Origin: Eubacteriales Family XIII. Incertae Sedis bacterium
GTDB taxonomy: Bacteria > Bacillota > Clostridia > Peptostreptococcales > Anaerovoracaceae
Length of the DNA: 25,424 nucleotides
Direction: 5' to 3'
Assembly (NCBI GenBank): GCA_031283865.1
Contig: JAITAX010000109.1
Span: 1 to 25,424 of the forward strand
Numbering within the stretch: the stretch's first letter is position 1; each line of letters opens with the position of its first letter. Made by a program: the position numbers and the translations under genes. The notes under the pieces are model-generated. The model did not search any database and was not told the DNA's origin. It saw nothing but the letters and a program-made list of their open reading frames with translations. This document shows, piece by piece, positions 1,691-25,424 of this stretch.

Positions 1691-1719
1691 TTGTTTTTTG
1701 TAACTTTTTCAAATATAAT
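1691..1719 (+). promoter_or_regulatory. sigma-A/sigma-70 type promoter of the CIS operon
   Basis: TTGTTT (1691-1696), 17-nt spacer, perfect TATAAT (1714-1719), in the most AT-rich stretch of the window. SD GGAGG at 1776-1780 precedes ATG 1786. Confidence 0.65.
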
Positions 1720-1785
1720 ACTAGTACCTTGTAACATAATAAATACAGCGTTAACGGCAGTCGAAAAGCTGCAATGGAGGCGAAG

Positions 1786-3582
1786 ATGGAAAACGAGCAA
1801 TTGCTGCCTTTTGAAAGAAACCGTTTCTACGTGGGGAAGCTGCTGACATCCTCTGATTTCCTCGCGGAGCAGAGCTACCTGAACAACAAACGGCGCTTTT
1901 TGAACAGCATGATGTTCGGCCACGGCGTTGTCCGCGGTCTCGGCGTTTACAACCTCGACGATCTGTCCGTGATCGTGGAATCCGGCATGGCAATCGACGA
2001 CTCGGGACGGGAGATCGTCGTGGAAAGCACGGTGATCCGGAAGCTGTCCACCCTGGAGGGCTTTGAATCGATTACGGGGGATCGCGCGATGCTGATGCTG
2101 CGCTACCGCGAGGAAGCCATCCATCCCACCTACTCCATCGCGCGGAAAGAGCATTCGGATGCCGAGTACGAGATGAACCGCGTGCGGGAGGGCTGGGAAC
2201 TGTTCCTGACGGAGCAGGCGCCGCCCGACATGCGGCCCGACACCGAGTTTTTGAGCAAGTCCACGCTGTACGCGGACAGCGACTACACGGTGGAGGTCGC
2301 CATACCCGGCAACGTGAGCTGCGGCGAACGCGTCAGGGCCTCCGTCTTCGTCAAGAGGCTTTCGGAGATTCCCAAAAGACTCTCTGTCGACTGCACGATT
2401 CACACGCCCGCTTTCACGGGCGAGAACGGCGATCACGAGCTGCACATCAAATTTGACGACATCCTGCCCGATCAGGGCCGGAGCTTACGCTTCGATTTCT
2501 TCCTCGACGCGCGGAACGAACCCGCGCCCGAGTCCTTTCTCTTAGCCAAGGCCGCTTCGATCCGCGTCAAAACGGACGGGGAGGTCAAGCAAGCGGACGG
2601 CGATCTGATGCTCAAGGTGAACGTCACAGACATCCCGCTGTATGAGCTGATCGGACGCGAGGTCGGACGCGTGAACCTCGAAACGGCGCTTGACGCGGGG
2701 AATGCGAACATGGTCTGCCTCGCGGAGCTTTCCCTGCAGAGGAGCAAGACGGATTACATCGTGGATCGAATCGAGGATCGCCGCGTCTATATCCGCACGA
2801 TGGCCTCTGAGTCGATGCGCCGCGAGTACGCGTCCTATTTTGAGCGCGCGCAGACGCCCGCGCGCAGCGACGGCGAGACGCCCGCGGCTCCGGACTTCGC
2901 GGGGGCGGTCTTTCGCGAACCGCTGTACGCCACGGGCCTGTGCGAGATTCCGCTCGGCGCCAATCCGCGCAAGGGCGAAATCTTCCTTTCGGACGAGATC
3001 ATGCACGGACTCGGCGAGGGCAACATCTACGTGGACGTCGGATTTGAATACATCGCGGAGGAGGGCCGCAACGCCTCTGCGGAAAGGCATACGATTTACG
3101 GCGATCCCGATCTGTTCGAGCGGGAGAACCCGCAGGTGGCCTACGCGACGACCGCGGTCAAGGTCTACGCGGAGCGGGGCAGTTTCATCATAGCCGCCGC
3201 GCTCACCAAGCCGACGAACTACGCCGTGATCTCCCTGCGGTGGGTGGCCGTGAAGCTGCCCGTCGGCGGGGACAGGCTGCTCCCGCGGAATACGGCGGGC
3301 CTCAGCATATCGGCGCTGACGCCGACAATCGTGCTCGGTATGCGGGAGACCCATTACTTCGCCGTCAGCTTCAAGAATATGGAGCCGTGTACGCTCACCT
3401 ACGAGCTTACGGAACGAAATTCGGGCGAGATCAGCGCCGACGGCGTGTATACCGCGCCGTCGAAAGAGGGCGTCTACGAGATTCGGATCTCCTGCGCGGA
3501 CATGCCGATGATCGGCACGTATGCGTATGCGGTCGTCAAGCGGGATCCGTTCAAGGAGGACGGGGGCGAAACGAGCGCGTAA
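1786..3582 (+). CDS. CIS-associated protein (598 aa) with N-terminal 'ERNRFY-GKLLT-DF-EQ-Y' domain and C-terminal Ig-like segment
   Basis: GGAGG 5 nt before ATG 1786 (a better start than 1774). I recognise the N-terminal motif FERNRFYVGKLLTSSDFLAEQSYLNNKRR...GHGVVRGLGV from uncharacterised eCIS-linked proteins. The C-terminal GEISADGVYTAPSKEGVYEIRISC is typical of bacterial Ig-like domains. Confidence 0.7.
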   Translation: MENEQLLPFERNRFYVGKLLTSSDFLAEQSYLNNKRRFLNSMMFGHGVVRGLGVYNLDDLSVIVESGMAIDDSGREIVVESTVIRKLSTLEGFESITGDRAMLMLRYREEAIHPTYSIARKEHSDAEYEMNRVREGWELFLTEQAPPDMRPDTEFLSKSTLYADSDYTVEVAIPGNVSCGERVRASVFVKRLSEIPKRLSVDCTIHTPAFTGENGDHELHIKFDDILPDQGRSLRFDFFLDARNEPAPESFLLAKAASIRVKTDGEVKQADGDLMLKVNVTDIPLYELIGREVGRVNLETALDAGNANMVCLAELSLQRSKTDYIVDRIEDRRVYIRTMASESMRREYASYFERAQTPARSDGETPAAPDFAGAVFREPLYATGLCEIPLGANPRKGEIFLSDEIMHGLGEGNIYVDVGFEYIAEEGRNASAERHTIYGDPDLFERENPQVAYATTAVKVYAERGSFIIAAALTKPTNYAVISLRWVAVKLPVGGDRLLPRNTAGLSISALTPTIVLGMRETHYFAVSFKNMEPCTLTYELTERNSGEISADGVYTAPSKEGVYEIRISCADMPMIGTYAYAVVKRDPFKEDGGETSA

Positions 3583-3616
3583 ACGTCTTCAGGCGAAGAT
3601 ACCGCGGAGGGAATGT

Positions 3617-24064: not shown

Positions 24065-24877
24065 ATGAGCCTGTACGATATTATAGACGAAATAAGCGAA
24101 CGCAGCGCGACGAAGACCGAGACGGGCGATACGCGCGTCCACGGCGTCATGATAGGCGTCGTCGCGAAGAACTACGACAAGGATATGCCGGGCCGCGTCT
24201 GCGTGACCGTGCCGACGCGCGACAAGGACAAGAACGAACTCAAGTGGGCGCGGCAGGCGCAGCTTTCGAGCGGCGAGAAGTGGGGCCACTACTTCCTGCC
24301 GGAGGTCGGCGATCAGGTGCTGCTGGCCTTTGAGGGCGGCAACATAGAGAAGCCTTACATCATCGGCTGCGTCCCGAGGGACAACGCGAAATTCCTCAGC
24401 GGCTCGGTCGACGAACACAATCAAATCAAGAGAATCGTCACAAAAAACGGGAGCACCCTGTCCTTCGAGGACAACAAGGAGGGCGACGGCGCGAAAGACA
24501 AGATCAACATAGAAACAGCGGGCCGGTCGCACGACCTGCTGCTCGACAACGAAAACAAGCTTATACGGCTGACCGATAAGGCGAAAGAGAACATGCTCGA
24601 GATCATGACCGAGAGCGGGCAGATGCGGATCAAGGCCAAGTCGCGGCTGACGATTGAGGTGGGCGACGGCGTAAAGATGATCTTCAACGGCGAGTCCGGA
24701 TCCGTGAAGCTGGAGGCTTCGGAGTTCTCGATACAGGTATCCAATCAGTTCAAGGCCAAGAGCGACGGCATGATTAAGCTGGACGGGGCGCAGATGAGCC
24801 TGAGCGCGTCCTCTATGTTCAAGGCCGAATCGGGCGGAATGGTCAATATAGCGGGCGCGCCCATCAAGATCGGATAG
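24065..24877 (+). CDS. baseplate spike, gp5/gpV OB-fold (phage baseplate assembly protein V / VgrG C-terminal half)
   Basis: GVMIGVV, GRVCVTVP, WAR, GHYFLPEVGDQVLLAFEGGNIEKPYIIGCV, followed by beta-repeat segments. Confidence 0.88.
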   Translation: MSLYDIIDEISERSATKTETGDTRVHGVMIGVVAKNYDKDMPGRVCVTVPTRDKDKNELKWARQAQLSSGEKWGHYFLPEVGDQVLLAFEGGNIEKPYIIGCVPRDNAKFLSGSVDEHNQIKRIVTKNGSTLSFEDNKEGDGAKDKINIETAGRSHDLLLDNENKLIRLTDKAKENMLEIMTESGQMRIKAKSRLTIEVGDGVKMIFNGESGSVKLEASEFSIQVSNQFKAKSDGMIKLDGAQMSLSASSMFKAESGGMVNIAGAPIKIG

Positions 24878-24912
24878 GGCGGCGCGCGCAGGTTGCGGAG
24901 GCGGACAATACT

Positions 24913-25335
24913 ATGGATGAAAACAAAGAGGCTTTTCTCGGAACGGGCATGAAGTTCCCGCCGCGAATCAATATAAACTCAGGGCGTTTCGCCACGAGTT
25001 CGGGGGCGGAGAACGTAAAGGAGTCCGTCTATATCATCCTCATGACGGGCCTCGGCGAGCGCCGGCTCGAACCGGCTTTCGGCAGCCGCATCATGCGCTA
25101 CACCTTTATCGACACCTCGCCGGCCATGCTCAACATGCTCTCCTCGGAGATACGGAACGCGATCCTCGGACAGGAGCCGCGCATATCCGACGTGGACATC
25201 GATTTCGAGCAGACCGTCGAGAGCGGCTGCCTGATCGTGAACATCGCCTACAGGCTCAGCGCAAGCAATACGGTCGAAAACATGGTCTTCCCGTTCTATC
25301 TGGGTTTGGCCGATACGGAGAACGCGGATGAATAA
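24913..25335 (+). CDS. GPW/gp25-family baseplate protein
   Basis: FLGTGMKFPP, NVKESVYIILMTGLGERRLEPAFGSRI, EPRISDVDI, VNIAYRL...NMVFPFY. Confidence 0.92.
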   Translation: MDENKEAFLGTGMKFPPRININSGRFATSSGAENVKESVYIILMTGLGERRLEPAFGSRIMRYTFIDTSPAMLNMLSSEIRNAILGQEPRISDVDIDFEQTVESGCLIVNIAYRLSASNTVENMVFPFYLGLADTENADE

Positions 25336-25424
25336 CAGCGAATTTAGGATAGATGCGCGCGACGCGGCGGAGCTTCGCGCGCAGATTAAGGTGCTGGCGG
25401 CTTCCTACACGCCGGAATGGCTCT
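25328..25424 (+). CDS. baseplate J/wedge protein (3'-truncated)
   Basis: ATG 25328 overlaps the gp25 stop by 8 nt. MNNSEFRIDARDAAELRAQIKVLAASYTPEWL matches the 'LDxR...L...YxPEW' N-terminus of eCIS baseplate J proteins. Not in the ORF track because it runs off the window. Confidence 0.75.
   Translation, partial: MNNSEFRIDARDAAELRAQIKVLAASYTPEWL

Follow-up and report, generated by a model that had tools for sequence, protein, structure and literature searches.

The stretch of DNA analysed here, called the window throughout, is the entire contig JAITAX010000109.1 (C33; 25,424 bases) of a fragmented metagenome-assembled genome (MAG; assembly GCA_031283865.1) of an Eubacteriales Family XIII bacterium. 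The MAG comprises 1.5 Mb in 287 contigs, is 70% complete and was assembled from a termite-gut DNA metagenome. The window encodes a contractile injection system (CIS) and, upstream of its cap gene, six genes named A1 to A6, which an earlier note on this DNA had taken together as an envelope and signalling module of the CIS. We assign A1 to the machine itself, as a tail fibre, and identify A2 to A6 as dedicated companions of the CIS. A minus-strand PstS-like gene is followed by 19 plus-strand genes (1786-25335), and the contig ends 89 nucleotides past the gp25 gene. The features are:

1691-1719, plus strand: promoter-like element (TTGTTT, 17-nucleotide spacer, TATAAT), read from the sequence; conserved block in relatives
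1786-3582, plus strand: A1, CIS13/eBAP3-type tail fibre, 602 aa, no transmembrane segment (NF053767 domain match, synteny)
3617-4459, plus strand: A2, predicted bitopic membrane pseudokinase, 280 aa, with a cytoplasmic kinase-like domain, one transmembrane helix and a short conserved outer tail (AlphaFold2, Foldseek)
4523-7156, plus strand: A3, predicted polytopic receptor, 877 aa, with transmembrane helices flanking large fast-evolving outer domains, a HAMP domain, a dead class III cyclase domain and a helical C-terminus (profile)
7184-8389, plus strand: A4, with a basic N-terminus, one transmembrane helix (hydropathy window 59-75), MORN repeats (Pfam MORN, E 7e-9) and a C-terminal domain without assigned fold
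8421-10439, plus strand: A5, predicted secreted TolC-fold protein with a signal peptide, two C-terminal immunoglobulin-like domains and no membrane barrel (Pfam OEP, E 7e-12)
10421-13114, plus strand: A6, with an N-terminal membrane anchor (hydropathy window 17-25), a long helical outer region, a Gly-rich linker and a C-terminal Cu_amine_oxidN1-like stalk domain
13146-13733, plus strand: cap protein (Pvc16_N, Cis16-like; Pfam E 6.8e-27)
13787-14566, plus strand: conserved 259-aa protein between the cap and PAAR-like genes, at the same position in relatives
14578-14961, plus strand: PAAR-like spike tip (DUF4280; Pfam E 6e-23)
15016-16719, plus strand: contractile sheath (Pfam Phage_sheath_1 and Phage_sheath_1C; best solved match 9EZM, E 1.2e-110)
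16798-17298, plus strand: inner tube, gp19 type (Pfam E 4.8e-33)
17311-17673, plus strand: tail assembly chaperone-like protein (phrog_508, E 1.4e-7; about 49% identity to the homologues of relatives)
17783-18415, plus strand: second tube-like protein, Cis5-like adaptor (weak gp19 and CIS5_fam matches)
18441-21200, plus strand: putative tape-measure-like protein, 919 aa, Ala/Glu/Arg-rich (position, composition, size variation in relatives)
21204-21947, plus strand: CIS_tube (tube-initiator) gene 1 (Pfam PF19266, E 5.5e-16)
22041-22835, plus strand: CIS_tube (tube-initiator) gene 2 (Pfam PF19266, E 9.3e-15)
22846-24030, plus strand: baseplate hub/gpD-like protein (NCBIfam VgrG_rel, E 1e-12; phrog_52 and phrog_196)
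24065-24877, plus strand: VgrG-type spike with an OB domain (Pfam Phage_base_V, E 7.9e-21)
24913-25335, plus strand: gp25-like sheath initiator (Pfam GPW_gp25, E 8.3e-17)

The upstream genes travel with the CIS. We searched a single fixed sample of 251 genomes from the order to which the window belongs. Sixteen of them have the cap gene, and A3 was found in exactly these 16 and in none of the 235 cap-negative genomes; wherever the two genes lie on one contig they are 3-13 kb apart. A5 occurs in eight genomes of the sample, always 3-7 kb upstream of the cap gene and on the same strand. Eight of nine matches to A6 lie beside Pvc16; the ninth, in a cap-negative genome, is weak and covers the C-terminal domain only. 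MORN matches are widespread (69 of the 251 genomes, CIS-less ones included), and the best genome matches that cover the transmembrane region of A4 all lie inside CIS loci. A2, searched with a single sequence, was undetectable outside the genus in this sample.

A scan of species-representative genomes with an A5 alignment gave 297 loci. Synteny was counted, on stop-to-stop frames, in the 79 most query-like of these, so that the counts describe this lineage; the 79 derive from Oscillospiraceae, Lachnospiraceae and termite-gut Clostridia MAGs and include the cultured carriers Hungatella hathewayi, Oscillibacter valericigenes, Pseudoflavonifractor phocaeensis and Bengtsoniella intestinalis. A6 lies downstream of A5 in 66 of 66 loci, and a cap or sheath gene in 63 of the 66 with room for it. 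Upstream of A5, where the contig leaves room, A1, A2 and A4 are each present in 62 of 62 loci and A3 in 59 of 62. The gene order of the window is colinear in 69 of 75 loci (about 70 species), and the full order of A1 to A6, cap, PAAR-like and sheath genes also occurs in another family in a class-level sample (G425). Gene content and order thus identify A2 to A6 as dedicated, long-conserved CIS companions in single-membrane Clostridia. The converse pattern, that homologues would mostly occur without CIS genes, had been named in the earlier note as one that would speak against such a link; it does not hold for A3, A5 and A6, while it is true that MORN repeats are widespread and that A3 relatives with an active cyclase domain exist without a CIS.

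Two kinds of unusual locus were seen in the scan. In three Lachnospiraceae MAGs (L112, L114, L118) A6 is followed by a single open reading frame of 2329-2360 aa that replaces cap and sheath. One contig labelled as a Bacteroides thetaiotaomicron MAG (L092) carries a clostridial A1-A6-cap-sheath locus with 43% A5 identity, and is probably mis-binned.

A1 was excluded from the envelope set. Residues 13-158 match the NCBIfam family CIS13_fam (NF053767, E 4.5e-26), a fibre family treated as eBAP3 (PMC12923769). The whole protein scores 92 against a cut-off of 370 bits, and only the N-terminal baseplate-anchor domain matches. In eight genomes of other families (G016, G037, G045, G159, G272, G130, G134 and G128) A1 homologues stand directly after three baseplate genes, and there the fibre and accessory genes often precede those for the cap and the PAAR-like tip. 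The window thus has this fibre-to-tip block (A1, A2 to A6, cap, 259-aa protein, PAAR-like tip) in another place, ahead of the sheath gene, with A1 relocated to the operon head instead of following the baseplate genes. Across about 65 species, the last sixth of A1 is 56% identical and the middle 31-37%. A fibre tip that recognises varied targets would be expected to show the reverse pattern.

With A1 removed, the proposed six-gene envelope module becomes one of five genes; other parts of that proposal fared better. Hydropathy agrees that five of the six upstream proteins carry a transmembrane segment or a signal peptide, with none in A1, and the folds suggested earlier (pseudokinase-like, pseudo-cyclase sensor, MORN, TolC-like, surface protein) are backed by Pfam, profiles, Foldseek and Atlas. 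The topologies of A2 to A6 given here derive from hydropathy and the positive-inside rule only.

The AlphaFold2 model of A2 has a pLDDT (predicted local distance difference test) of 93.6, and its top Foldseek matches in the PDB are all Ser/Thr kinases; the family profile matches NEK1 weakly (E 0.002). The family has about 200 cluster representatives. No catalytic motif is conserved among 87 homologues, in which the only invariant residues are I274 and G275 in the outer tail, and only about 20 residues follow the transmembrane helix. A2 matched no Pfam family at E 0.01 or better, YukC included, and by language-model features it lies near the YukC/TraF clusters (score 0.93).

The family profile of A3 matches solved adenylate cyclases (E 1.5e-13) and HAMP domains. 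Every CIS-linked copy examined has other residues in place of both metal-binding Asp, and this holds too for the copies from two further families in the class-level sample. A word-indexed protein search with full-length A3 recovered close relatives only, because the N-terminal two-thirds diverge fast. Across about 65 species this outer part is 13-19% identical to the window copy, whereas the cytoplasmic end is 31-43% identical. A variable outside and conserved inside of A3, together with the conserved distal end of A1, fits a putative conserved inner contact between machine and module and a variable outer sensor.

In the class-level sample (200 genomes) the C-terminal profile of A3 matches HAMP domains nearly everywhere, and only full-length matches were interpreted. 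These were found in seven cap-less genomes of two families (G357, G439, G325, G386, G413, G430 and G345), which hold the closest CIS-less relatives of A3; in the four of the seven that were searched, two per family, no sheath gene was found. Both catalytic Asp residues are kept in the three CIS-less relatives aligned (one or two from each of the two families) and lost in the CIS-linked copies. The CIS-specific entity therefore appears to be a catalytically dead subfamily of a real receptor-cyclase family. Five of these genomes (G357, G439, G325, G386 and G413, including L132 and L133) are Clostridia of 0.8-1.0 Mb and about 30% GC with short HAMP-cyclase proteins of 420-510 aa, and the catalytic Asp residues are intact in both of those examined (G357, G439). 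In several Oscillospiraceae-type CIS loci (L029:6112-9150, L035:2759-5794, L041:1109-4126) a paralogue adjoins A3 that shares its outer domains; a long hydrophobic C-terminus, apparently polytopic by eye in the alignment, replaces the HAMP and pseudo-cyclase domains.

For the C-terminal domain of A4, a structure search of the Atlas gave chance-level matches only (scores up to 0.81). A5 matches TolC by profile across both repeats (E 2e-10). Its AlphaFold2 model has a pLDDT of 82.5, and the top Foldseek matches are TolC, OprM and CusC (44 of 44). At the positions of the two barrel segments the model has a 16-residue loop (84-99) and two 4-residue strands forming a mini-hairpin, so that A5 is predicted to lack the beta-barrel hairpins of TolC; the most conserved motifs of the family map to this barrel-equivalent tip. 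Pfam detected no pump or adaptor gene for A5 in the window. Residues 738-895 of A6 gave an Atlas structure match (TM-score 0.78), and this C-terminal domain is structurally like the Cu_amine_oxidN1 stalk domain that is common in wall proteins of Bacillota; a search of the Atlas by language-model features gave no match for A6. A1, A2, A3, A5 and A6 have no match in PHROGs, and a phage lysis or structural origin is therefore unsupported.

The machine downstream is recognised by Pfam through its sheath, tube, VgrG spike, PAAR-like tip and gp25 (E 1e-15 to 5e-33) and its cap. Pfam found no capsid, portal or terminase genes in the window, in line with the headless CIS read earlier, and no head genes were noted in the flanks of relatives' clusters, which were compared with CIS families derived from the window and, for parts of G037, G045, G130 and G159 only, annotated with Pfam. 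The 259-aa protein has no match in Pfam, NCBIfam or PHROG. The tape-measure-like protein has no family match in Pfam or PHROGs; its gene in relatives encodes about 870 to 1859 aa, and if it sets length, particle length would vary about twofold between species. In one relative a separate 62-aa DUF6760 gene (L028:19244-19432) lies between the chaperone-like and second tube genes; the corresponding place in the window is 17616-17876.

Further baseplate genes and the ATPase are missing from the window but not from the genome. With the proteins of relatives as probes, homologues of their three post-gp25 baseplate genes (Cis11/12-like wedges, which have no Pfam match) were found on contigs C254 and C77 of the same MAG. 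Contig C242 encodes an AAA+ ATPase that is 32-39% identical to the ATPases of relatives' CIS loci. The predicted machine is thus headless but otherwise complete, and the lack of an ATPase in the window reflects a gap in the assembly. Beside the ATPase gene on C242 and divergent from it (L048:533-3837, minus strand) are two further genes. One encodes a second, shorter TolC-like protein of 443 aa (Pfam OEP, E 4e-18) and the other a GHL10 protein that carries S-layer homology domains, which makes an S-layer or a secondary wall polymer probable in the host.

The 19 plus-strand genes are separated by gaps of -19 to 109 nucleotides, and most are preceded by a Shine-Dalgarno sequence. The gap between A6 and Pvc16 is 31 nucleotides, with AAGGAG before the Pvc16 start. 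A terminator scan found no site within 13,000-13,200, which spans the A6/cap junction (13114/13146), and the 16 terminator-like sites in the window compare with a chance expectation of 20.8 from shuffled sequence. The element at 1691-1719 was not listed by a consensus promoter scan because its -35 hexamer is weak (3 of 6 matches). Four same-genus sequences keep the block 1691-1723 almost unchanged and diverge on either side of it, which marks it as a phylogenetic footprint. The fibre-to-tip block ahead of the sheath gene is probably under one promoter. The one sequencing run that contained the homologous Hungatella locus, a run of unspecified type, covered it in short contigs at a flat depth of 2-6. 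The earlier description of a promoter-like element followed by more than 23 kb of tightly packed same-strand genes, with no evident terminator between the accessory and structural blocks, is thus borne out.

Just 5' of the promoter-like element lies a tandem direct repeat of about 14 nucleotides (AATCGATATATG core, two copies; 1651-1678). The same-genus relatives do not keep it; a regulator may bind there, or the duplication may have arisen by chance. The genes directly 5' of A1 in relatives encode a histidine kinase and an OmpR-type response regulator (L026:1848-3387, L028:1964-3658 and many of L051-L129), and the AAA+ ATPase gene is often divergent from this pair; the minus-strand PstS-like gene occupies this place in the window.

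The host is probably single-membraned. Omp85 was not found in it or in four complete CIS-bearing relatives, and diderm controls were positive in 7 of 7 cases. TssM (PF06761) and TssK (PF05936), markers sought for the type VI secretion system (T6SS), were not found in five genomes (G000, G037, G262, G159 and G158), with positive controls for both (E. coli for TssM). In the four complete loci of relatives no holin or endolysin gene follows the fibre gene, a result for the flanks of the loci that leaves room for lysis genes elsewhere in the genome; the genes there are housekeeping genes, encoding solute-binding proteins, a hybrid kinase, GreA, DcuC, peptidases and a release factor. The earlier claims of a probable monoderm host and of no recognisable T6SS anchor or lysis cassette agree with these results.

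Among solved sheaths in the PDB, the closest to that of the window is the haloarchaeal 9EZM (E 1.2e-110), followed by the cytoplasmic Streptomyces CIS (about 1e-89) and PVC/Afp (about 1e-47), which places the predicted CIS in the lineage of the Streptomyces and haloarchaeal systems. The 9EZM sheath is from the T6SS-like CIS of Halogeometricum borinquense, which is membrane-anchored, and Bacillota CIS are the nearest bacterial relatives of the haloarchaeal CIS (PMC11566945). Both systems belong to single-membrane hosts with a surface layer (probable here); the window's machine, unlike the haloarchaeal one, has a thick peptidoglycan wall to cross. A conserved membrane protein is encoded beside the haloarchaeal cluster and correlates with the membrane-anchored mode, and Cis12 and Cis13 have been proposed to touch the membrane (PMC11566945). 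Compared by description, this candidate anchor (Hbor_38620) is one protein that crosses the membrane with six helices and has a cytoplasmic domain of 150 residues, whereas here there are five proteins of other architectures.

Streptomyces coelicolor shares with the window a Gram-positive host, and its sheath is the second closest. Its accessory membrane protein CisA is encoded at the fibre position, is required for firing and is not part of the purified particle (PMC12237407, PMC10066040). CisA is one bitopic protein whose outer domain is substrate-binding-like, and A2 to A6 share no such architecture, again compared by description. The Streptomyces clusters lack fibres (PMC12237407, PMC10066040), whereas the window has one. 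The extracellular CIS (eCIS) Afp and PVC have in common with the window a sheath, tube, spike, PAAR-like tip, gp25, cap, AAA+ ATPase, tape-measure-like gene and fibre (PMC12923769, PMC8213781); they differ in a far more distant sheath, and the window's lineage has a conserved distal fibre end and five envelope genes inside the operon. A survey of eCIS from 2021 found no Pfam domain characteristic of Gram-positive eCIS (PMC8213781).

The resemblance to T6SS docking on TssJLM is one of function only, namely that a contractile machine would be held at the envelope by a dedicated multi-protein complex; TssM, TssK and an outer membrane marker were not found here, and the cap, the tape-measure-like gene and the fibre are present, unlike in T6SS. 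A2 resembles the scaffold proteins EssB/YukC of the type VIIb secretion system and TraF of Gram-positive type IV secretion systems, in which a cytoplasmic kinase-like fold that lacks catalytic motifs precedes a single transmembrane helix (PMC9600267, PMC13037476). A2 differs from EssB/YukC in lacking a Pfam YukC match and in having a short tail instead of an outer domain, and from both in that no type VII or type IV secretion partner genes lie at its locus. In the literature on contractile injection systems we found no description of the A2-A6 module.

We favour, as a tentative reading that falls somewhat short of an even chance, that A2 to A6 form a membrane- and wall-spanning complex that docks and triggers a particle built in the cytoplasm. 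The particle would be assembled there, and its baseplate would dock at the inner face of the membrane through its peripheral parts, namely the Cis11/12-like wedges and the A1 fibre, whose distal domain is conserved. Its partners there would be two dead enzyme folds, the A2 pseudokinase and a dimer of the HAMP-pseudo-cyclase A3. Outside, the sensor domains of A3, the MORN repeats of A4, a trimer of the barrel-less TolC-like A5 and the wall-bound A6 would make up a wall-spanning assembly that holds the machine. A cue from outside could then pass through the A3 HAMP domain to cause contraction, and the assembly may also offer the spike a prepared path across the thick wall. The outcome would be docked firing, a T6SS-like use, instead of lytic release. 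The wider claim is doubtful but possible: that single-membrane Clostridia, including common gut commensals, have an undescribed trans-envelope complex of two dead-enzyme scaffolds, a MORN protein, a barrel-less TolC-like trimer and a wall anchor, which holds an injector and fires it through the wall on an external cue, as a Gram-positive counterpart of T6SS made from unrelated parts.

Several points weigh against docking by A2 to A6. We infer the protein contacts, the localisation and the single transcript from the genes, and the topologies come from hydropathy and the positive-inside rule alone. Free eCIS particles, whose length is fixed, are characterised by a fibre gene and a tape-measure-like gene, and the haloarchaeal cluster has no tape measure (PMC11566945), in contrast to the 919-aa gene here. 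Half of the CIS loci in the order are without detectable A5 or A6, the lineages in which A2 was found all have the gene order of the window, and lysis genes could sit elsewhere in the genome. Finally, a CIS tube is much wider than the channel inside a TolC trimer. A literal conduit formed by A5 for the tube is therefore unlikely, and this candidate was dropped on size.

The same genes could belong to a classical eCIS, whose particles would leave the cell through lysis or wall remodelling, under genes located elsewhere, and use A1 to bind their targets; A2 to A6 would then be only a sensory, regulatory or release-assisting module that sets the time at which particles are produced or set free. 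A fibre catalogued as an eCIS receptor-binding fibre (eBAP3/CIS13 type), a tape-measure-like gene that would set a fixed length, and cap and AAA+ ATPase genes as in Afp/PVC all suit this explanation, as do the receptor architecture of A3 and the OmpR-type two-component pair just upstream in relatives. It accords less well with the four complete loci, which have no lysis cassette, with a distal fibre end that is conserved and not variable, and with a sheath much closer to those of cell-bound systems than to Afp/PVC. A classical signalling output is therefore also missing, as A3 is predicted to be unable to make a nucleotide signal after loss of its metal-binding Asp residues and A2 is without catalytic motifs. 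On balance we consider a released particle unlikely, though it deserves serious attention.

It is rather improbable that the system resembles that of Streptomyces in the sense that cytoplasmic particles fire into the cell's own membrane under stress, in regulated cell death or development, with A2 to A6 as a CisA-like adaptor. Streptomyces sheaths are indeed the second-closest solved relatives, CisA is a membrane protein encoded at the usual fibre position and needed for firing, and the envelope sensors of the module could report stress. Against this, the fibre, which has no homologue in Streptomyces clusters, is universal here, no protein follows the plan of CisA (disordered N-terminus, one transmembrane helix, substrate-binding-like domain), and five proteins with large outer parts, a secreted TolC-like one among them, exceed what an inward-firing adaptor would seem to need. 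That the upstream genes are an unrelated signalling or efflux operon which merely neighbours the CIS is very improbable indeed. TolC, cyclase, kinase and MORN folds do have known functions apart from CIS, and MORN matches are common in CIS-less genomes. The gene order is, however, conserved across families and at least two orders, A3, A5 and A6 co-occur strictly with the cap gene, and the block sits between the machine's own fibre and cap genes; the window has no pump or adaptor genes and the catalytic residues are lost.

To the question of how a contractile injector can work across a single membrane and a thick wall, the studies on Streptomyces and haloarchaea have each contributed one candidate adaptor, whereas here a defined set of five proteins travels with the machine in many Clostridia. 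Cultured gut species carry this set, and the question is therefore directly testable by genetics and tomography. The locus also provides clear cases of enzyme folds turned into putative scaffolds, among them a pseudo-cyclase whose active-cyclase relatives lack a CIS, and it places a TolC fold in a cell without an outer membrane. If docking of the injector by A2 to A6 holds true, it would represent a new mechanism for antagonism or host interaction by abundant gut anaerobes.

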